From sequence record PP358550: DNA of 64,000 nt, one strand, 5' to 3'. Source of the DNA: Escherichia phage FL04. The number at the start of each line of letters is the position of its first letter. Position 1 is the first letter of the stretch. A program made the translations under genes and the position numbers. The notes under the pieces were generated by a model. The model made no database searches, was not told the origin of the DNA, and saw nothing but the letters and a program-made list of their open reading frames with translations. Positions 30,039 to 39,181 of this stretch are shown in pieces.

Positions 30039-33000
30039 TTAGTCTTCCCAGATAAAGTCTACGGTACGAGTCAGATTATTGGCGATGATTTTAACATTAC
30101 CAACTTTGATCCAATCACGAACCGTCATAGAGTTCATTAAACCACCTTCTGCAACTACTGCCCCGATTTCCTGAGCGGTAGGCTTATTCTGTTTGGTGTA
30201 AATTTCACCCCATGCGGTCCATTGACCACCAGTACCGGAACGGATATAATGTTTATGAGTACCATCAGGGGACCAAAGCTGGGTAAGCCCGTCCTCGTCA
30301 GTACCCCATTGCATCAGAGTACCGTTTTTCTTCTCTGGATAAGTTTCTTTGATGTTCTGGGTAGTAACTCGCATATTCCAGAAACCGATGTTACCGATTG
30401 CCGGAGCGGTTGCCGCGCTAGCTTCATGCTTAACAGAAACAATAGGCGCATTATCCATAGTCAGCTTACCGACCATTGTATCGCCAGCATTCTTAACAAA
30501 CTGACGGTTAAGAACTTCGTCAGCGTTTCCTGCGTGTACGATCTGATATTTCTGTCCGGAGATCTCTGTAGTTAACGTTTGAGAACCTGCCTTGATGTTA
30601 ACACTTCCACCGTGACCGATATTCAGCATACCATCTGGGGAACGAGTCATTGCCGGATTAGACTGGTCAACAATGTATAAACCGCCTTGTTTCGCATACA
30701 GGTTACGACCTGCAATAAAGTCTCTATATGCTGTCGCGTCGCCATTGTGTTCCATAGCAAAGGCGTAATGCTCGACGACTCCACCATCATTGATTTTACC
30801 GAAAGCAATAGCATCACTATCAACAACTTGCGCTGTTCCAGTACCACCAACGATAATAGACCAAGAGTTTTTCATGCCTTCCGATGCGGTTGTGCCATGC
30901 AGAGTAATTCCGGTGTGACCGTCAACTCCACGCTCCCCCAACACCAGATGACCATTACTCGGAACATCGGTCGAGTTCTTAGTCACAGACAGAGTTTCAA
31001 AGGAACCTGATTTTAAGCACTCTAAATCGCCCTTCACGTTAACGTTTTTATTAAACGTGTAATTGCTCTCTATGATCTGGTCAATGTCTCTACGCGCCCA
31101 TTTAGCGGCCTCTACGTTACCCAATTTCAAACTATTCTGAGCGGTTGCCATCTTAGGTAAGAAATTAGCAAGTGCGTAGTTTAATCCTTTCGGAGTTACC
31201 GCAATCCCGTCATGCTGGTAGTTTCCTAGCTCTTGAGTAGAACCTTGCAGATTATCACCAACAAAACAGTTTTCCTGAGTAGCAACTTTCAAGAAACCAC
31301 GACGCGCTTCGGTTGCTTTCCATGTATCCTCTGTCTGAACAACATATTTGAAGTTCTTCGGAGAAATTGCTACATTAGCCAGTGCACCAGCCACGGTTTC
31401 GGCTTGAGTACCAACTCGGATAATACCTTCTTTACCTTCGGTGGCCTTTTTGCCTTGCAGCTTTTTAGGAGTGATGATTGTAGTATCATCTTGACCAGCA
31501 TCCGTAAGCTGAGTAGTAGCAACTTTAGCGACACCTTTTGTGTCTTCGGTTGCATCCAGACCGCTGATCATGATACCTTGCCACAAATCACCAGTAAGGT
31601 TAAGCCCCTGAGTCGGATCTACTTTCAAACGCTGTGCATTCTCAAAGAAGGTTTTAATCTTCAATGGGGTAGAAATGCGAGCATCGTCACGACCTGCGTC
31701 AAATTCCGACTGAGTTGCAATTTCTGCTAAACCGTGTAAAGTTTCCGTAGCACGGCGAGTATGCAGTTTTTTAGGTGTGATAATATGGTTATCACTTTGG
31801 CCTAAGTTAGTTTCTTCCTGCGTAGCAATTTCAGCGATACCAGTACGGGATTCGGTAGCAGTACGCTTGGTTAACGTGCGAGTAGTGATCAGCAATGCAT
31901 CTTGCGGGGTTGATTCAGTAGCCCCTTGCACTTCCGCGTCAGTTGCCAGATACCCAACACCACGAGAAGTTTCAGTAGCTTTAACTTCGTTGATGTTTTG
32001 CGGAGTAACGATTTTAGCGTGGTCGTCGATGTTATAGATCCCTGTACCAGCTTCACCCCTTCGAGCGGCAGCATTACCGCCTACCTGAACAATTTCAGCG
32101 ATACCAGCAAGATCCTCGGACGCGCGACGTTCTTCTAACTTCTTAGGAGTGATTGCGCGGGTATCGTCTAAACCTTCGTTTGTTTCATGTTGAGTTGCAA
32201 TTTCCATCACACCACGACGGTCTTCGGTAGCAACACAGTCATTTAACTTTTTAGGTGTAACGATAACATCATCCAGGAAGCTGGAACCAGTATCTTGATG
32301 CGTTTCCGCTTGAGTTGCAATGCGAGCAATACCGCGTCGAGTTTCGTTGGCTGTTTTATTAGCCAGAACCTTTGGGGTCACCGCAACTTCGTCGCTAGGA
32401 TTATCTTCATGGTTTTTGTTTGTTTCATCCTGGGTAGCCAGTGCAATTACACCAACACGATCTTTACGAGTCGGATCTACTCGTTCTACAATCGGGTGAG
32501 CATGTGCCACCAACCAGTATTTCTTACCATCATCACCTTCTGAATAAGAGAACTCCAGATAAGGTACATAATCATTTGCAGCGTTGAAAGACAATTCAGA
32601 CACTCCAGTCCATGTATCGGTCCCATTGAATGGGTACTCGCTACGCTTAGGAAACTGAACCATGTTTTTCTGCATAAGGATTTTTGTATCCTCTTCTGAG
32701 GTAATGATTCGGCAAGTCTGGTTTCCGTGCATATACTGCATAGAAACTTGGATACGATCACCCGGCTCGACATTGGTCGGTAAAGTCAAGGTAACATCAC
32801 GATCACCAAATACTGCAACATAGCTATTAGGGGATAAGCGAGTATCACTAATGATAGGATTCAAGCGAACAGACTGATCGCCATCCCACAAACGCCATAA
32901 GTTTTCCGGTTTGTCAAAGATGAATACACCATGACCGCTACGCTTACCAACAATTTCTTTTACCCCGAAAGTACCGATCGATTGTTCTTGCGCACCTTCA

Positions 33001-33779
33001 TGTACTTTTACTGTAACATGGTTGGTTGCAGTCAATCCGTCAAGATCGGTAGTCTGGATCATATCACCGTTATTAGCAAACTTAGGAAGCATCAAAACAA
33101 TGTTACCTAAAGAACTACGACGGAATACCTGATCACCGTTTTGCATCTGAATCGGATCAATAGATGGCTGTGCATATACCCCGCGCGGCTCCGTTCCCGT
33201 CTGGTAAACGTGCCAGCGATTGCGAACAAAAATGAAGTAGTTCATTGCATAAGGGGTAGTACAATACCATTTGCGGTTGTTTACCACACCGTTATGATAG
33301 AACTCATGACCAGCCGCAAGGAACGATAACTCATTAACACCGCACTTGCCACCGATATCTTTTACTGTTATAGTGTCGCCCTCTGCCGGATTAGTAGGCA
33401 TTGAGAATGTCAAGTTTGCAAACTGACAGTCCGCTGCGATATAATCACCGGACTTTAAAGGAGTATCGCCGGAAGTTGCTGCAACATAATCCCAACGTGG
33501 GTCCGTGCGCAGTGCTTGCCATTTAGTCGGGTCAAAGTCACCTGCTGGTTTTGCGATATCTTCTTTTGCATAATACGGACGGTTTTGATAGATTGTAGTT
33601 CCGTATTGATCATAACCGCGAGTTGTGTCATACTGAGTAATACCATTATGGTAATTGAAAAATTCAACGTTGACCGCATCCGTTGATGTGTTTTTATCTG
33701 CGTATGCTACATTGACGACCTTTTCATTACCAGCGTCAAAGCCAAATGTGGCCTTGAAATGTTGAGAAAAATCTGCCAT
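30039..33779 (-). CDS. 34: long tail fibre proximal subunit gp34
   Basis: 1246 aa; N-terminus MADFSQHFKATFGFDAGNEKVVNVAYADKNTSTDAVNVEF resembles T4 gp34; internal repeats of type G(I/V)AxIATQxET. Confidence 0.88.
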   Translation of the reverse strand: MADFSQHFKATFGFDAGNEKVVNVAYADKNTSTDAVNVEFFNYHNGITQYDTTRGYDQYGTTIYQNRPYYAKEDIAKPAGDFDPTKWQALRTDPRWDYVAATSGDTPLKSGDYIAADCQFANLTFSMPTNPAEGDTITVKDIGGKCGVNELSFLAAGHEFYHNGVVNNRKWYCTTPYAMNYFIFVRNRWHVYQTGTEPRGVYAQPSIDPIQMQNGDQVFRRSSLGNIVLMLPKFANNGDMIQTTDLDGLTATNHVTVKVHEGAQEQSIGTFGVKEIVGKRSGHGVFIFDKPENLWRLWDGDQSVRLNPIISDTRLSPNSYVAVFGDRDVTLTLPTNVEPGDRIQVSMQYMHGNQTCRIITSEEDTKILMQKNMVQFPKRSEYPFNGTDTWTGVSELSFNAANDYVPYLEFSYSEGDDGKKYWLVAHAHPIVERVDPTRKDRVGVIALATQDETNKNHEDNPSDEVAVTPKVLANKTANETRRGIARIATQAETHQDTGSSFLDDVIVTPKKLNDCVATEDRRGVMEIATQHETNEGLDDTRAITPKKLEERRASEDLAGIAEIVQVGGNAAARRGEAGTGIYNIDDHAKIVTPQNINEVKATETSRGVGYLATDAEVQGATESTPQDALLITTRTLTKRTATESRTGIAEIATQEETNLGQSDNHIITPKKLHTRRATETLHGLAEIATQSEFDAGRDDARISTPLKIKTFFENAQRLKVDPTQGLNLTGDLWQGIMISGLDATEDTKGVAKVATTQLTDAGQDDTTIITPKKLQGKKATEGKEGIIRVGTQAETVAGALANVAISPKNFKYVVQTEDTWKATEARRGFLKVATQENCFVGDNLQGSTQELGNYQHDGIAVTPKGLNYALANFLPKMATAQNSLKLGNVEAAKWARRDIDQIIESNYTFNKNVNVKGDLECLKSGSFETLSVTKNSTDVPSNGHLVLGERGVDGHTGITLHGTTASEGMKNSWSIIVGGTGTAQVVDSDAIAFGKINDGGVVEHYAFAMEHNGDATAYRDFIAGRNLYAKQGGLYIVDQSNPAMTRSPDGMLNIGHGGSVNIKAGSQTLTTEISGQKYQIVHAGNADEVLNRQFVKNAGDTMVGKLTMDNAPIVSVKHEASAATAPAIGNIGFWNMRVTTQNIKETYPEKKNGTLMQWGTDEDGLTQLWSPDGTHKHYIRSGTGGQWTAWGEIYTKQNKPTAQEIGAVVAEGGLMNSMTVRDWIKVGNVKIIANNLTRTVDFIWED

Positions 33780-33807
33780 TATTGGGTCTCCTTTTATAGT
33801 ATGTTCA

Positions 33808-33815
33808 TATTTATA
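33808..33815 (-). promoter_or_regulatory. T4-type late promoter TATAAATA (for gp34)
   Basis: Exact TATAAATA on - strand about 30 nt upstream of gp34 ATG. Confidence 0.6.
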
Positions 33816-33853
33816 AAATAAGGCTTGATAGAAACAAAAGAGGATGATATATT

Positions 33854-34039
33854 ATGGTTAAAGTTGATTTGTCAGACGGTGCAAAATGGGTAGTTGACCG
33901 AATCCCTGATAAGGATTACAATTATTTTCGCGCAGAACTAAACAATGCAATTCTGCGAGTTATGGAGAAATACGGGTATGATCGTGAAGTATCTAGCTCG
34001 TTTGATGAGTCTGTTGTTGTGAGAGTGGAGAGAACTTAA
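33854..34039 (+). CDS. hypothetical protein (61 aa)
   Basis: Immediately upstream of rnh, same strand. Confidence 0.45.
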   Translation: MVKVDLSDGAKWVVDRIPDKDYNYFRAELNNAILRVMEKYGYDREVSSSFDESVVVRVERT

Positions 34040-34041
34040 TT

Positions 34042-34989
34042 ATGACGTATAACCCGTTTACAAAAACTACCGCTACACTTAATGATTTCTTTGATGATCC
34101 AGAAGATAAACTGCCGGAAGGTGTGCATTTGATTGATATGTCGCAGCTTATGATTGCTACTATCTCGCATACCTTTAAACCGGAAGATCCTATTAATGAA
34201 GGCATGATCCGTCATCTTATTCTTGACACCATGCGTTATAATATGACAAAATTCAAAGATCAATACCCAATCACGGTACTTGCTTTTGATTCAAGCAAAG
34301 GTTACTGGCGACGTGATATCGCACCTTACTATAAACGCAACCGTAAGGAAAAACGAGACGCAGATCCTCGTGATTGGGAGATGATCTTTGCTGCGATCAA
34401 TAAGATCACCGAAGAGTTTAAAGAGAACATGCCTTATCACGTTATTAAGGTTGACAAAGTTGAAGCAGATGATATAATCGCTGTGTTAACTAAAAAGTTT
34501 TCTGTAGAAGGTCGTCAGGTGCTAATCAACTCCGGCGATGGTGACTACACACAGTTGCACAAATACAAAAATGTGAAACAGTGGGCGCCAGTACAGAAAG
34601 CATGGAAGAAATGCAAATATGGTAGCCCTTACAAAGACCTTATGGTAAAATGTGTTAAGGGTGACGCAAAAGACGGTGTGGCTTCTGTCAAGTGTCGTAG
34701 TGATTTCATTATCTCTCGACTGGAAGGGGAACGAGCTAAACCAGTTCCAACCAAATGGTTGGAGCAAATTTTCGATGCCGAAGATCCAAAGTCTTTGATG
34801 ACAGAGGAAGAAGCACGACGATTTGACGAAAACCGCGAACTTATTGATTTCGATTACATCCCAGATGATATTCAGAATCAGATTCTGGAGTCATGGGAAA
34901 AATCTAAACCAGCACCACGCGGTAAAATTTATAACTATTTTGTAACAAATGCGTTAGTTAAAATGTTGCAGAAAATTGGTGAGTTCTAA
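34042..34989 (+). CDS. rnh: RNase H (5-prime to 3-prime exonuclease, FEN family)
   Basis: 315 aa; GYWRRD, MPY.V.K.DK.EADD.IAVL.KKFS.EG, DGD.TQLHKY.NVKQW, KDNVASVK.RSDF, LIDFDYIPD, PRGKIY.YFV matching T4 RNase H. Confidence 0.93.
   Translation: MTYNPFTKTTATLNDFFDDPEDKLPEGVHLIDMSQLMIATISHTFKPEDPINEGMIRHLILDTMRYNMTKFKDQYPITVLAFDSSKGYWRRDIAPYYKRNRKEKRDADPRDWEMIFAAINKITEEFKENMPYHVIKVDKVEADDIIAVLTKKFSVEGRQVLINSGDGDYTQLHKYKNVKQWAPVQKAWKKCKYGSPYKDLMVKCVKGDAKDGVASVKCRSDFIISRLEGERAKPVPTKWLEQIFDAEDPKSLMTEEEARRFDENRELIDFDYIPDDIQNQILESWEKSKPAPRGKIYNYFVTNALVKMLQKIGEF
34451..34478 (+). promoter_or_regulatory. internal sigma70-type promoter within rnh
   Basis: TTGACA 34451-34456, 16-nt spacer, TATAAT 34473-34478. 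Confidence 0.4.
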
Positions 34990-34999
34990 GGGTTGACAT

Positions 35000-35599
35000 A
35001 TGAAAGAACTTGAATTAAAATGCTATGCACACTCACAAATTGGCGTCGAAACCATCTGTGATTTGTGGGTGGCAATGTATGACGGATACAATCTCTTAGA
35101 CCGAGATAACATTCTAAAACACGAATTTTATTATGATACCGAAGATCATGCGCTACGTCAAAAAGGAATTTATGCACGACTTGACTGTCGAAAATCAGAG
35201 ATCATGGTCAAAATGGGTGATAATGAATCTGGACTATTCAACCGCGAGGAAATTACATTTTCAAATTGGGATGAGTTTGTCCATTTTATTGATAGTATAG
35301 GGGTAAACTCAGACTATATCACTACAACAATGCAAGTAATGACATATCGCAAGTCATTGACTATAGATATGGGTTGTGGTATAGTGGAAATGTGCAAAGA
35401 CACTTTCTATTATGGCAAAGTAGGCGAAGGATTGGGCGACACTGCTCATTATGAACTTGAGTTCGAGTTAAAATCAGGTGATGAAAAAGCACTTGACATT
35501 ATCCGAGAAATGATGCTAGAATATGTGGGTGACGATTTACGTCCTAGCGAAATCTCAAAAGCTGAACGTGGTTTTCAATTAATGACGAAAGAGGGTTAA
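35000..35599 (+). CDS. CYTH-like domain protein (triphosphate tunnel metalloenzyme family)
   Basis: 199 aa; N-terminal ExExK (KELELK), HEFYYDTEDHALRQKGIYARLD, REEITF, C-terminal HYELEFELK acidic strand motifs in the order typical of CYTH domains. Confidence 0.65.
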   Translation: MKELELKCYAHSQIGVETICDLWVAMYDGYNLLDRDNILKHEFYYDTEDHALRQKGIYARLDCRKSEIMVKMGDNESGLFNREEITFSNWDEFVHFIDSIGVNSDYITTTMQVMTYRKSLTIDMGCGIVEMCKDTFYYGKVGEGLGDTAHYELEFELKSGDEKALDIIREMMLEYVGDDLRPSEISKAERGFQLMTKEG

Positions 35600-35603
35600 T
35601 ATT

Positions 35604-36128
35604 ATGACTGAACAGAAAAAAGAAAAAGTAGTATTTGACGAAAATGTACACGGAAATACCCTGGCACAACTGATTAAAGAAGCCAGCGATCAGAAAACCA
35701 TTCAAGAAGCATACGGCGATAAGATCAAAGAGATCAAACAGCGTGCTAAAGAAGAATTAGGCGTAGACGGTAAAATGTGGGGCATTCTGTTTAAACTGTG
35801 TATCACCAGCAACAGCGCGAAACCTTCGAAGCAGAACGCGATGAAGCGGCAGAACTCTATGATCGGGTGTTCAATGCTTAATGAACATGCGGTAAAAGCC
35901 GCGAATAAAACAGCAAACGGTCTTGCAATCGAAAAACTGGTTGTTGAAGAGGGATTGACTTATCTTGAAGCGACCACTCAGTTTGTAGAGGAAAACTCTA
36001 TCGAATATGGTCACTATCAGAAATATATTCCGGTGTCCATTATTGACAAGATCACACAAGAATGTATAGTAAATAGAACGCTCAGGAAGGGAGTGATCGA
36101 CGAACCGACCAACACTCTCGATATTTAA
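35604..36128 (+). CDS. hypothetical protein (174 aa); positional equivalent of T4 gene 33
   Basis: Located between rnh-proximal gene and gp59; C-terminus ...TNTLDI; function not verifiable from sequence. Confidence 0.5.
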   Translation: MTEQKKEKVVFDENVHGNTLAQLIKEASDQKTIQEAYGDKIKEIKQRAKEELGVDGKMWGILFKLCITSNSAKPSKQNAMKRQNSMIGCSMLNEHAVKAANKTANGLAIEKLVVEEGLTYLEATTQFVEENSIEYGHYQKYIPVSIIDKITQECIVNRTLRKGVIDEPTNTLDI

Positions 36129-36137
36129 GGGGTATGT

Positions 36138-36818
36138 ATGATCAGAAACCGTCTTCCTCCAGATCCAGATATGCGAATTAATGCTAAATCTGTGTATATG
36201 TTATATTGCATGATGAAAGCTCACATGAACGGGCGTTATGATTGCGTAAAATATAATTGGAGGATGCGGTTGTCTGATGCCGCATTCAATAAACGCAGAG
36301 ATAAGTATTATTTCGCAAAATTAGCGGAAAAGTACAATCTAAGAGAATTATACTTCCTATTCCTAAGCAATCTGGTAGCTAATACCGATGCATGGGTAGG
36401 TGAAATCACCGATGTTGACGCATACGGGTTTTACATGGAGTACATCGGTAAAATCACTGATGCGGCAACACGATTTGACGATGACATTAAAAGTCTTGTA
36501 TACTTCTCAGAGAAACGCGGGGTTACTCTTAAAGAGCTAATTACATATAATCCCGCAACCGAAACTAGCGGTATCTTTAAACTACTGCAAAATCGGATTA
36601 TATCGTTTGAGTCGTTTATGTTGTTAGATAGCTTTCTAAATATAATCGACGAACACGACAAGGTAGCCAAAGACTTGATTTGGCAAACTTATAGTGTTAA
36701 AATGAAGGCGTACAAGAAACTACTTGTTATTGACGTCGCAAAAGCAAGAGCATTATTTGTTAAAGTAGTTAAAGAGTGTAAAGAAATATCTCAATTAAAA
36801 GCCGAAACAAATAGTTGA
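36138..36818 (+). CDS. 59: helicase loader gp59
   Basis: 226 aa; KSVYMLYCMMKAHMNGRYD.VKYNW.MR.SDAA..KRRDKY.F.KL.EKY.L.EL, LSNLVAN.DAW.G.I.D.DA matching T4 gp59. Confidence 0.92.
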   Translation: MIRNRLPPDPDMRINAKSVYMLYCMMKAHMNGRYDCVKYNWRMRLSDAAFNKRRDKYYFAKLAEKYNLRELYFLFLSNLVANTDAWVGEITDVDAYGFYMEYIGKITDAATRFDDDIKSLVYFSEKRGVTLKELITYNPATETSGIFKLLQNRIISFESFMLLDSFLNIIDEHDKVAKDLIWQTYSVKMKAYKKLLVIDVAKARALFVKVVKECKEISQLKAETNS

Positions 36819-36842
36819 CAAGTAAATTTAAATCTGTATAAT
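36815..36842 (+). promoter_or_regulatory. sigma70-type promoter upstream of gene 32
   Basis: TTGACA 36815-36820, 16-nt spacer, TATAAT 36837-36842. Confidence 0.55.
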
Positions 36843-36872
36843 AGTCTAGTAAATTAATCAAAAGAAGGAATA

Positions 36873-37847
36873 GTGAATATGTTTAAACGCCAAGATTCTT
36901 CCAAACTGCAAGCTCAACTGGCCGCACTGAAAGGTGGCAACGGTTTCTCCAAAGAAGATCCGAAAGAGTGGAAGATTAAGACTGATGCAGCAGGTAACGG
37001 TGAAGCCCTGATTCGCTTCCTGCCGTCTAAGACAGAAGACGGTCTGCCGATTGTGAAACTGGTAAACCATTCCTTCAAAGTTAATGGCAAATGGTATTGG
37101 GAAAACTGCTCCAGCACCCACGGTGATTTTGATTCTTGCCCTGTGTGCAAATATATTAACGAAAAAGACTTGTACAATACCGATAAAACCGAATGGCAAC
37201 TGATTAAGCGTAAAGCGTCTTACTACGCAAACATTCTGGTACTGAAAGATCCTCAAGCACCAGAAAATGAAGGTAAGGTATTCAAATTCCGCTTCGGTCA
37301 GAAAATTTATGATAAGATCGTTGCAATGGTGAACGTGAATACCGATATGGGCGAAGTTCCGGTAGATGTAACTTGTGTGTTCTCTGGTGCTAACTTCCTC
37401 CTGAAAGCTAAGAAGGTTGATAAACACCAGAACTATGATGATTCTCGTTTCATGCAGCAATCACAGCTTCCGAAAATTGAAGACGAAGCATATCAGAAAT
37501 ATCTGATGGAAAACATGGTTGATCTGAGTGAGATTGTAGCGCCTAGCCAGTTTAAACCGTTCGATGAACTGGAAACCAAATTTAAGAAAACTATGGGCGT
37601 TTCTATGGTAGCTGGTGCTGCGGCTTCCAGTGCTGCGGCAGCGATTAACAGCCAGCTTGACGATTTTGACGCACAGATGAATGCATTCGATTCTGGTATG
37701 ACCGCAGCTAGCACTGTAGTTGGTATTAACGCAGCTAGCACGGCGTTAGATTCTTCCGCTGATGACCTGATGGCATCTCTGGACCTGGGTGGCGGTACTT
37801 CCTCCGCTTCTGATCTGGATGATCTTGACGCTCTGTTAGGGATGTAA
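36873..37847 (+). CDS. 32: single-stranded DNA-binding protein gp32
   Basis: 324 aa; MFKR...EWK.K.D.AGNG.A.IRFLPSK, NHSFK.NGKWY.E.CSSTHGD.DSCPVC.YI...[19 protein letters not shown], acidic C-terminus (DLDDLDALL). Confidence 0.95.
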
Positions 37848-37858
37848 TGAATTTTACA

Positions 37859-37882
37859 GCCTCCCTCCGGGGAGGCTTTTTT
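37859..37882 (+). terminator. rho-independent terminator after gene 32
   Basis: GCCTCCC-TCCG-GGGAGGC hairpin plus TTTTTT. Confidence 0.75.
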
Positions 37883-37908
37883 ATTGCCTAAAATTTTATG
37901 AAAAGGTG

Positions 37909-37936
37909 TTGACATGCTTATGTGGTAATGTATAAT
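37909..37936 (+). promoter_or_regulatory. early promoter cassette (TTGACA-16-TATAAT, type TGTATAATGCACA)
   Basis: Followed by conserved CATCGAAACAA-GGAGGA initiation region; same cassette repeated at 39170 and 39553. Confidence 0.6.
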
Positions 37937-37966
37937 GCACACATCGAAACAATGGAGGATAAAAAT

Positions 37967-39181
37967 ATGTTAGTACGTCAAGCGCATGAAATTGAATGGA
38001 CTAAGGAGAAACATAATTGTAGAGCGAAAAGCCCAACAGATTTTTATGGTAAAATTTTAGAAATATGTAAAACAGAAAATTTAGTTTTTGTCGGCTTTGT
38101 TGGGGAATGGGAAGGAAACAAAACAAAAATAAAACTTATCTGCGAACATGGTCATGAATGGATATGTTCGATAGATAAATTTGTAAGTAAAGGAACAAGA
38201 TGTTCTCATAAACAATGTAAAGGTAAACGAATATCTAAAAAATTGTCTATATCCGAAACGGAATACAAAACGAGAATTTTAGAAATATGTGAAACTGAAA
38301 ATCTAATTTTCTTAGGTTTTGTTGGTGAATGGAAAGGGTGTGATACTAAAATTCGCATAAAATGCAAATACGGTCATGAATGGGATGTATCTATATATAG
38401 CTTCACAAAAATGAATACCAGATGCCCTACATGCGCAGGAAAGAACAAGACAAAAGACGAATACAAAACGAGAATTTTAGAAATATGTGAAACTGAAAAT
38501 CTAATTTTCTTAGGTTTTGTTGGTGAATGGAAAGGATGCCGCACAAAAATAAAACTTAGCTGCAAACACGGTCATGAATGGATATCTTCCATATTACATT
38601 TTGTGTATCAAAATACTCGCTGTCCTGTATGTGTTGGTAGATTGTCTATCGACGATAGAATGATACAGATTAATCAAGTTTGCAATTCTTTAGGTTATGT
38701 AATAATTAAGATCCACGAAGAATGGAAAAACACAGAAACTAAAATTGATGTTAAATGTTTATGTGATTATATATGGACAACAACAATACATAGAGTCATA
38801 CATGGGACTACAGGTTGCAGAAAGTGTGCTACATATGGATACAATACAAAAAAATCGGGGACTCTTTATATACAGAAATTAACCAACGATGATTCCTTTG
38901 TTGGTGTGAAATTTGGAATAACAAACAGAGACACGAATGAACGAATGAAAAACCAATCATCAAAGTCTAAATTCGACCATGAGATCTTTTATGAATTGAC
39001 TTTACAAGACGGTCAAAAGATCTTAGAATTAGAGAACAAGATCAAGGAAGCGATGAAAGGTAAAACTTCCTATATCTCAAAAGAAGATATGCCGGATGGC
39101 TGGACCGAAACAGTAGCGCCGTCTGAATTGAGCACTATCATGTATATCGTAAAAACTTTTGAAAAAGAGTTGACAGCGTAA
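37967..39181 (+). CDS. T5orf172 (GIY-YIG-like) domain protein with four N-terminal zinc-ribbon repeats; putative nuclease/homing endonuclease-like
   Basis: 404 aa; four ~70-aa repeats each with C..HGHEW ... RC..C; C-terminal GTLYIQKL...VGVKFGITNRDTNERMK pattern. Confidence 0.65.
   Translation: MLVRQAHEIEWTKEKHNCRAKSPTDFYGKILEICKTENLVFVGFVGEWEGNKTKIKLICEHGHEWICSIDKFVSKGTRCSHKQCKGKRISKKLSISETEYKTRILEICETENLIFLGFVGEWKGCDTKIRIKCKYGHEWDVSIYSFTKMNTRCPTCAGKNKTKDEYKTRILEICETENLIFLGFVGEWKGCRTKIKLSCKHGHEWISSILHFVYQNTRCPVCVGRLSIDDRMIQINQVCNSLGYVIIKIHEEWKNTETKIDVKCLCDYIWTTTIHRVIHGTTGCRKCATYGYNTKKSGTLYIQKLTNDDSFVGVKFGITNRDTNERMKNQSSKSKFDHEIFYELTLQDGQKILELENKIKEAMKGKTSYISKEDMPDGWTETVAPSELSTIMYIVKTFEKELTA
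38261..38547 (+). repeat. intragenic tandem direct repeat (two near-identical ~78-bp copies 210 bp apart, 38261-38337 and 38471-38547)
   Basis: GAATACAAAACGAGAATTTTAGAAATATGTGAAACTGAAAATCTAATTTTCTTAGGTTTTGTTGGTGAATGGAAAGG present twice; more diverged copy upstream. Confidence 0.8.

Follow-up and report, generated by a model that had tools for sequence, protein, structure and literature searches.

A CYTH-type triphosphate tunnel metalloenzyme with an apparently altered tunnel and cassette-like evolution in the rnh-dsbA interval of Krischvirus phages

Why does a T4-like phage carry a CYTH superfamily member among its replication genes, and on what does the encoded protein act? The question is raised by a 64,000-nucleotide stretch of Escherichia phage FL04 (record PP358550; hereafter the window), which megablast assigns to Krischvirus, the RB49/Phi1/JSE "pseudo-T-even" group of Straboviridae, with vB-Eco-KMB43 as the closest match (99.8%). 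A preliminary description of the window had recognized a CYTH-like protein encoded between rnh and gene 59, and had suggested that it might make or destroy a nucleotide messenger or act on triphosphates. The gene in question is:

35000..35599, + strand: CYTH/triphosphate tunnel metalloenzyme (TTM) gene, orthologue of RB49ORF244c and member of phrog_14893; ATG start, 199 aa.

The open reading frame (ORF) and all the sequence features first reported for it are present: KELELK, with the ExExK signature, corresponds to residues 2-7, the central block YYDTEDHALRQKGIYARLD to residues 44-62 and the acidic strand HYELEFELK to residues 150-158. We consider it probable, at roughly 60%, that the product is a stand-alone, catalytically competent TTM of the YgiF-like CYTH branch whose natural substrate bears an organic group.

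The ORF is a real gene and not a chance reading frame, since it is found in 58 phage records, shows pairwise dN/dS values of 0.2-0.35, and its product matches both the Pfam CYTH family (PF01928: 27.4 bits against a gathering score of 23.2, E 3.5e-6) and, in a profile-profile alignment of ten clade members, 146 cellular CYTH relatives (probability 99.9%, E 1.3e-34). Most of its relatives likewise have a precomputed PF01928 match. On these grounds the CYTH-like identity proposed at the outset stands. An AlphaFold2 model from 15 homologues (pLDDT 91.3, pTM 0.84) displays eight long strands and a C-terminal helix, i.e. the superfamily's eight-stranded antiparallel beta-barrel tunnel and C-terminal plug helix. 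The comparison with CYTH structures that the preliminary description had put forward as a check again returned a CYTH fold: Foldseek searches of the PDB recovered Escherichia coli YgiF at the top (E 4e-12, TMq 0.77), with further TTMs below it. Among solved structures YgiF is by far the closest, similarity to those of class IV adenylate cyclases (AC-IV) being much lower. With the ExExK motif, the C-terminal ExE and the basic tunnel residues also in place, the gene is a genuine CYTH/TTM representative. A search of the PDB with the single protein placed the "immunity protein TriTu" (7zhm) first at E 0.11; this match was absent from the profile search and was set aside as chance.

Curated resources provided no finer classification: NCBIfam, including its cyclase models, gave zero matches; PHROGs has the protein in a family of its own, phrog_14893, with no function assigned; and PADLOC-DB returned no match at E up to 10, hence no known defence or counter-defence family. 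The orthologues in GenBank are mostly labelled hypothetical, with "adenylate cyclase" used four times and "inorganic triphosphatase" twice. The domain call itself is not new and has been public since 2006, when RB49ORF244c was tabulated with a CYTH Pfam match (E 0.0026), alongside Aeh1ORF004c (Nolan et al. 2006, PMC1524935); the earlier remark that no such gene was known in characterised T-even phages thus overstated its novelty. CYTH triphosphatases have also been noted as scattered over jumbo phages (Iyer et al. 2021, PMC7824862). What appear to be new are the altered tunnel and the fast, cassette-like evolution of the gene. Within a familiar enzyme superfamily it is an uncharacterised, phage-specific representative whose pocket and evolutionary dynamics are both unusual.

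The catalytic apparatus can be read against the structures and mutants of YgiF and AtTTM3 (PMC4641920): YgiF E160 holds metal 1; E4, E6 and E162 hold metal 2, the activator of the attacking water; R56, the first Arg of the RxR pair, is catalytic, its neighbouring Arg being dispensable for the inorganic triphosphatase activity of AtTTM3; and K69 binds substrate and orients the metal-2 glutamate. We use the numbering of that paper, to which the PDB chain numbers of YgiF add 2 (chain K71 is K69 of the paper). Column counts below refer to the 146 cellular relatives on one side and the ten clade sequences on the phage side. The features are:

34990..34996, + strand: weak Shine-Dalgarno-like GGG (34990-34992) and in-frame TGA (34994-34996) ahead of the start codon.
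35006..35020, + strand: ExExK (E3, E5, K7); E3 and E5 correspond to YgiF E4 and E6 of metal site 2.
35171..35185, + strand: Y58-A-R60-L-D62, a variant of the (small/W)xRxR strand; R60 corresponds to the catalytic YgiF R56, and D62 takes the place of the second Arg.
35210..35212, + strand: K71, corresponding to YgiF K69 (substrate binding, orientation of the metal-2 glutamate).
35243..35251, + strand: R82-E-E84, a basic tunnel residue and an acidic-patch glutamate.
35348..35350, + strand: R117, invariant tunnel arginine, Arg in 146/146 cellular relatives.
35399..35407, + strand: D134 (Asp in 146/146) and the clade-specific F136, whose column is Gly in 111/146 cellular relatives.
35447..35467, + strand: clade-specific H150, then E152-L-E154-F-E156; E154 corresponds to YgiF E160 (metal 1) and E156 to YgiF E162 (metal 2).
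35555..35572, + strand: SKAERG (K187, R190), where the C-terminal plug helix begins; it matches SKAARG of YgiF.

Fifteen residues are invariant in the phage proteins (E3, E5, K7, R60, K71, R82, E84, R117, E130, D134, E152, E154, E156, K187 and R190), and they match columns kept in 89-100% of the cellular proteins. The ExExK motif is unchanged in 15/15 and 10/10 clade sequences, its E/E/K pattern being found in 142-144 of the cellular set, in which the RxR columns are Arg in 143/146 (first) and 141/146 (second). The placement of R60 depends on the register of this strand. In the hhalign alignment the phage ARLD is matched to the consensus LRIR, with a two-residue deletion in the next hairpin; a HMMER alignment to YgiF instead opens a gap before the strand and brings Y58 to the catalytic Arg. 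The latter register was set aside, since the spacing from YYDT to the first Arg is identical, without gaps, in the phage protein, YgiF and the homologues P0046 and P0047. The two registers present a genuine ambiguity, and we regard the profile-profile one as the more reliable.

This register bears directly on the chemistry. Class IV cyclases carry an adenine-stacking HF motif four residues before ExExK and a small neutral residue in place of the central Arg of xRxR, whereas WxRxR marks the thiamine triphosphatases; the ligands of metals 1 and 2 come from the ExE motif (SaTTM study, PMC8233210). Neither cyclase hallmark is found in the phage protein: it begins M1-K2-E3, with the in-frame TGA two codons 5' of the ATG excluding an N-terminal extension, and hhalign places the invariant R60 at the central Arg. 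In the absence of both hallmarks the "adenylate cyclase" label on the orthologues is probably wrong, and with this an annotation that is being propagated can be corrected: CYTH proteins are routinely mis-annotated as cyclases, and YgiF itself is an inorganic triphosphatase without cyclase activity (Kohn et al. 2012, PMC3440374). Judging from these motifs, the protein is most likely a Mg/Mn-dependent triphosphate hydrolase and not an adenylate cyclase; of the two activities suggested initially, action on triphosphates agrees with the supported CYTH assignment, and the making of a cyclic messenger is disfavoured.

The published two-metal TTM mechanism would be the most likely mode of action. The substrate-Mg2+/Mn2+ complex would be held in the barrel by E154 at metal site 1, its phosphates bound by K7, K71, R82, R117, K187 and R190, while R60 would stabilise the beta-gamma bridging oxygen; the products would be the diphosphate form and inorganic phosphate. 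The enzyme would probably be expressed early together with rnh and serve an accessory function, with an exterior that evolves fast.

What distinguishes the phage clade is a set of residues predicted to line the tunnel:

35024..35026, + strand: Y9, tunnel-facing, clade-specific; Tyr in 0/146 cellular and 10/10 phage sequences.
35117..35119, + strand: K40, tunnel-facing lysine, clade-specific; Leu/Gln/Met in cellular sequences (Lys 0%), Lys in 10/10 phage sequences.
Position 58: Ala/Ser/Gly/Thr in 130/146 cellular sequences; phage Tyr in 8, Val in 1, Ile in 1.
Position 62, second Arg of RxR: Arg in 141/146 cellular sequences, never Asp; phage Asp in 9, Asn in 1.
Position 69: Thr in 130/146 cellular sequences; phage Met or Leu in 9, Thr in 1.
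Position 136: Gly in 111/146 cellular sequences; phage Phe in 9, Val in 1.
Position 138: mostly Ile/Val in cellular sequences; phage Tyr in 10.
Position 150: His in 1% of cellular sequences; phage His in 9.

Strand parity, anchored on the inward-facing catalytic residues, would point all of these positions into the tunnel, and the strand register suggests that K40 lies beside D62, where it may represent a relocated positive charge. The position equivalent to Y58 is occupied in thiamine triphosphatase by the Trp that stacks on the thiazole, and the tunnel mouth away from the metal-2 site, towards which strand direction would place all of these residues, holds the non-leaving part of the substrate in triphosphatases (PMC8233210, PMC4641920). 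A mouth remodelled in this manner, i.e. with loss of the second tunnel Arg and gain of Tyr9, Lys40, Tyr58, Phe136, Tyr138 and His150, would therefore favour an organic triphosphate, and hints at a nucleoside- or other organic triphosphate over bare inorganic triphosphate (PPPi) as the natural substrate. The combination of YxRxD with K40, F136 and H150 occurs in 0 of the 146 nearest cellular CYTH proteins, and offers a handle for finding that substrate.

The resemblance to thiamine triphosphatase does not extend far: the mammalian enzyme (14% identity) has WxRxR where the phage protein has YxRxD, and the two have in common only the catalytic Arg and an aromatic residue at the W position, with Y58 not conserved in the wider clade. 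Similar in organization are the stand-alone CYTH/TTM triphosphatases of bacteria and archaea, e.g. Bacillus halodurans BH2851 and Sulfolobus acidocaldarius SaTTM, which are likewise single-domain proteins of about 180-200 aa with a plug helix and two-metal sites.

Several points weigh against the assignment as an organic triphosphate hydrolase. The placement of the clade-specific residues at the tunnel mouth away from the metal-2 site follows from strand parity and direction rather than from coordinates, and position 58 is not Tyr throughout the wider clade (P0044 has Val, P0045 Ile). HMMER alone aligned Y58, not R60, with the catalytic Arg of YgiF; were that register correct, the protein would lack the central Arg as cyclases do, and some plant TTMs are reported to combine triphosphatase with weak cyclase activity. 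YgiF, the closest characterised enzyme, is specific for PPPi and does not hydrolyse ATP, GTP or ITP (PMC3440374), such that similarity alone points to PPPi. Our survey of the literature turned up no functional work on the gene, nor on a CYTH enzyme from any other phage.

Accordingly placed first among the alternatives, though still clearly the less favoured, is a specific inorganic triphosphatase or short-chain polyphosphatase akin to YgiF or Nitrosomonas NeuTTM, which would clear PPPi or short polyphosphate. It draws on the structural proximity to YgiF, itself a specific inorganic triphosphatase, on the retention of every phosphate- and metal-binding residue save one Arg, on the dispensability of precisely that second Arg for such activity in AtTTM3 (PMC4641920), and on the name used in some GenBank records. 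Yet the Arg lost is one that 141 of the 146 cellular proteins keep and the clade has replaced by Asp, and the bulky aromatic, His and Lys residues of the phage tunnel are not seen in PPPi-type relatives: the full RxR pair and small tunnel residues of the YgiF-type tripolyphosphatases have given way to D62, Y58, F136 and Y138. Compared with YgiF (PDB 5a60/5a61), a CYTH-CHAD protein, the 199-aa phage protein lacks the polyphosphate-binding CHAD domain, has a beta3-beta4 hairpin two residues shorter, has Asp for the second RxR Arg, and displays the clade-specific Y9, K40, Y58, M69, F136, Y138 and H150. Moreover, PPPi has no established role in E. coli and is already removed by the host pyrophosphatase (PMC3440374), which leaves the benefit to the phage unclear. 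Were the substrate PPPi or ordinary nucleoside triphosphates (NTPs), this would be a minor metabolic accessory gene.

The remaining alternatives have to be weighed in light of the distribution and evolution of the gene. By tblastn the protein is found in 58 phage records, all of the Krischvirus group, always between rnh and dsbA; rnh matches equally many records, and the gene is therefore universal in sequenced Krischvirus. A word-indexed search gave 43 clusters, all Krischvirus-like, with identity down to 47%, and a HMMER profile search of 1.84 billion representatives gave 217 matches with E<1e-3, six of them below 1e-10. The clade proper, whose members have 185-206 aa, consists of the Krischvirus proteins with the metagenomic P0043 and P0044 (E 1e-30) and P0045 (E 1e-15); the other matches are cellular stand-alone CYTH (~200 aa) or CYTH-CHAD (~500 aa) proteins, P0046 among them lying in an archaeal context. 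P0043, P0044 and P0045 come only from short metagenomic contigs, on each of which the gene lies directly 5' of dsbA-33(-59), and in the case of P0043 also directly 3' of rnh; from this common context, the gene is a long-standing positional orthologue in one T4-like lineage. When the two most distant clade members served as tblastn queries, and when IMG/VR was scanned, Krischvirus alone was recovered, with none in T4 or other sequenced phage groups. Other phages do encode CYTH proteins that have been proposed to act on nucleotide triphosphates, e.g. Aeromonas phages Aeh1 (ORF004c), 65.2 and D3, the Ralstonia jumbo phage RP12 and further jumbo phages. These are remote relatives (Foldseek TM 0.3-0.5, no tblastn match with clade members) located elsewhere than at rnh-dsbA, and are probably independent acquisitions.

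Within Krischvirus the gene stands out from its surroundings through the following segment:

35000..35450, no strand: divergent allele cassette, 54-62% nucleotide identity to phage Skers, with zero indels.

The 4 kb of flanking sequence are 95-100% identical between the two phages, and codons 149-199 of the gene itself 96-98%, as against codons 1-148, where synonymous sites are saturated (pS 0.72) at a dN/dS of about 0.2. At the protein level the neighbours of the gene are 97-100% identical to those of Skers and the CYTH protein 57%; in uncultivated relatives the corresponding values are 69-92% and 31-47%. In the N-terminal 148 residues at least four deep lineages are present among Krischvirus-type genomes, the most distant of which are 43-50% identical, about as far apart as an orthologue from another lineage. 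Tunnel-facing positions stay 69-79% identical against 29-34% elsewhere (Fisher p 1e-4 to 6e-8). The cassette is bounded by the conserved coding motifs for ExExK and ExExE and by conserved flanks, which would give homology for recombination. The pattern fits repeated allele replacement under constant catalytic selection; it also fits what is typical of host-interaction genes and is by itself no proof of positive selection. The gene has its place in the best-conserved replication cluster, in all sequenced Krischvirus, yet evolves in the manner of a host-interaction gene.

Comparison with KMB43 shows two private substitutions in the CYTH protein of the window, Y8C (35021-35023) and L122I (35363-35365), and zero synonymous changes. 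The other 14 aligned sequences all have Tyr at position 8, which faces outward by strand parity.

Such dynamics bring up a counter-defence role, which we regard as a speculative extension of low probability: a triphosphatase that "sanitises" the nucleotide pool or destroys a host triphosphate nucleotide used against the phage. Triphosphate nucleotides do serve in anti-phage immunity, e.g. deoxyinosine triphosphate (dITP) in Kongming, and deoxythymidine triphosphate (dTTP) and p3diT in Clover, and phages counter this form of immunity by destroying the messengers or their precursors. Targets that could be entertained, with the same reserve, include dITP of Kongming, the ddhNTP chain terminators of prokaryotic viperins, or another non-canonical NTP. 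In this scenario the pocket formed by Y9, K40, Y58, D62, F136 and H150 would recognise the organic part of the host molecule, and the rapid turnover of exterior alleles round an unchanging active site would stem from an arms race against host factors sensing or inhibiting the enzyme. A literature search found no paper linking a phage CYTH protein to counter-defence and no TTM implicated in this role; to our knowledge, no triphosphate-tunnel enzyme acts in counter-defence or nucleotide sanitising. If the substrate were a host immune or toxic nucleotide, the clade would constitute a new class of phage counter-defence enzyme.

Action on RNA is improbable. An RNA or primer 5'-triphosphatase would take the gamma-phosphate off 5'-ppp ends, e.g. 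those of Okazaki RNA primers that the neighbouring RNase H handles, or those of transcripts with consequences for their decay. However, the synteny with rnh may merely reflect insertion into a conserved early operon; CYTH is the sole Pfam family matched at E up to 1, with no match to the Cet1-type mRNA triphosphatases (PF02940), whose open, plug-less tunnel the phage protein does not have; and the conserved SKxxRG plug helix, which in small-molecule TTMs seals the tunnel at one end, should hinder a polymer.

A shade less credible still is a class IV (CyaB-type) adenylate or nucleotidyl cyclase whose product, cAMP or another cyclic nucleotide, would reprogram the host or disturb signalling. The characterised AC-IV proteins (CyaB; Yersinia pestis 2fjt/3n10) belong to the same superfamily and have the fold and the two-metal chemistry that is common to cyclases and hydrolases (PMC4641920); they are the source of the label on the four GenBank records, and the HMMER alignment to YgiF does put a non-Arg residue at the central position. 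The missing hallmarks set out above speak for the hydrolase. Least plausible is a main role in binding, as a sponge or decoy for a triphosphorylated nucleotide or a protein-protein inhibitor acting on a host factor, which would account for the fast-evolving surface. The use of sponges against immune nucleotides is well established in phages, and the exterior diverges extremely fast by allele replacement, but the invariance of all metal-binding and catalytic residues in a clade diverged to 30% identity is hard to explain without catalysis.

With respect to expression, the region 33700-38000 contains 25 sigma-70-type matches, nearly all on the + strand, against 12.1 +/- 3.8 expected. They include:

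34451..34478, + strand: perfect sigma-70 consensus TTGACA-16-TATAAT inside rnh, a candidate early promoter that would serve the CYTH gene and the 3' part of rnh.
35493..35522, + strand: predicted promoter-like TTGACA-18-TAGAAT with TG, 11/12, in the conserved 3' end of the CYTH gene and facing dsbA.

The excess fits the strong early promoters and PeSL elements described for RB49 and Phi1; early promoters of the RB49 group follow the E. coli consensus, and the group is without MotA-type middle promoters. As to late promoters, no TATAAATA was found on the + strand upstream, the sole nearby TATAAATA being on the minus strand before gene 34. The sigma-70 matches, the consensus used by the group and the lack of a + strand late motif together make early co-expression of the CYTH gene with rnh likely, so far as promoter motifs can tell. 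Three sites are perfect 12/12 matches: 34451 within rnh, 36815 ahead of gene 32, and 37909 ahead of an endonuclease-like ORF. A further 11/12 site, TTGACA-17-TAAAAT at 34993-35021 (+), runs across the CYTH start codon and would start transcripts within the ORF. It was not taken as the promoter of the CYTH gene, and the conserved coding sequence for MKELELK may produce it by coincidence. Rfam searches of both strands over 33000-38500 found nothing in or near the CYTH gene and only a sub-threshold STnc100 match at 37814-37888 (+; 25.8 bits against a gathering score of 47, E 0.012), which overlaps a strong terminator hairpin at 37858-37877 after gene 32 and is most likely just that terminator.

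The immediate neighbours are:

34042..34989, + strand: rnh (T4 RNase H/5'-3' exonuclease), conserved upstream neighbour; Pfam RNaseH_C and 5_3_exonuc_N.
35604..36128, + strand: dsbA and gene 33, conserved downstream neighbours; here a single fused ORF through a 2-bp insertion.

The gap from the rnh stop codon to the CYTH gene is 10 nt, and that from its end to the ORF with the DsbA and gp33 domains 4 nt, followed by gene 59 and gene 32. The preliminary description was correct in placing the gene directly after rnh in the replication cluster; it does not replace the small genes that T4 has there, as dsbA and 33 still lie before gene 59. Overlapping ORFs on the minus strand at the CYTH gene have 63, 43 and 53 aa.

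In the window dsbA and gene 33 form one 174-aa ORF (35604-36128, +) by virtue of a 2-bp "TG" insertion at ~35798-35799 (AAACTGTGTATC against AAAC--TGTATC in KMB43 and Skers). The insertion puts dsbA into the frame of gene 33 past about codon 65, with the DsbA domain keeping profile positions 1-43 of 67. It is either a true frameshift in the isolate or a sequencing error, and the own start of gene 33 is probably still usable.

Upstream, between rnh and the divergently transcribed gene 34, lies a 61-aa ORF (33854-34039, +; phrog_3594, function unassigned, no Pfam match) that is kept at the same place in KMB43 and Skers; the metagenomic relative L006 has an 85-aa ORF there. Past gene 32, a 419-aa ORF (37922-39181, +) contains four CapR-homology repeats and treble-clef zinc-finger matches, with a weak GIY-YIG-like (MUG113) match at the C-terminus; it falls in phrog_681, "endonuclease", and is probably a homing-endonuclease-like mobile gene. 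Its position is taken by another small ORF in KMB43 and by a GIY-YIG nuclease in Skers, which also has an HNH endonuclease between genes 59 and 32.
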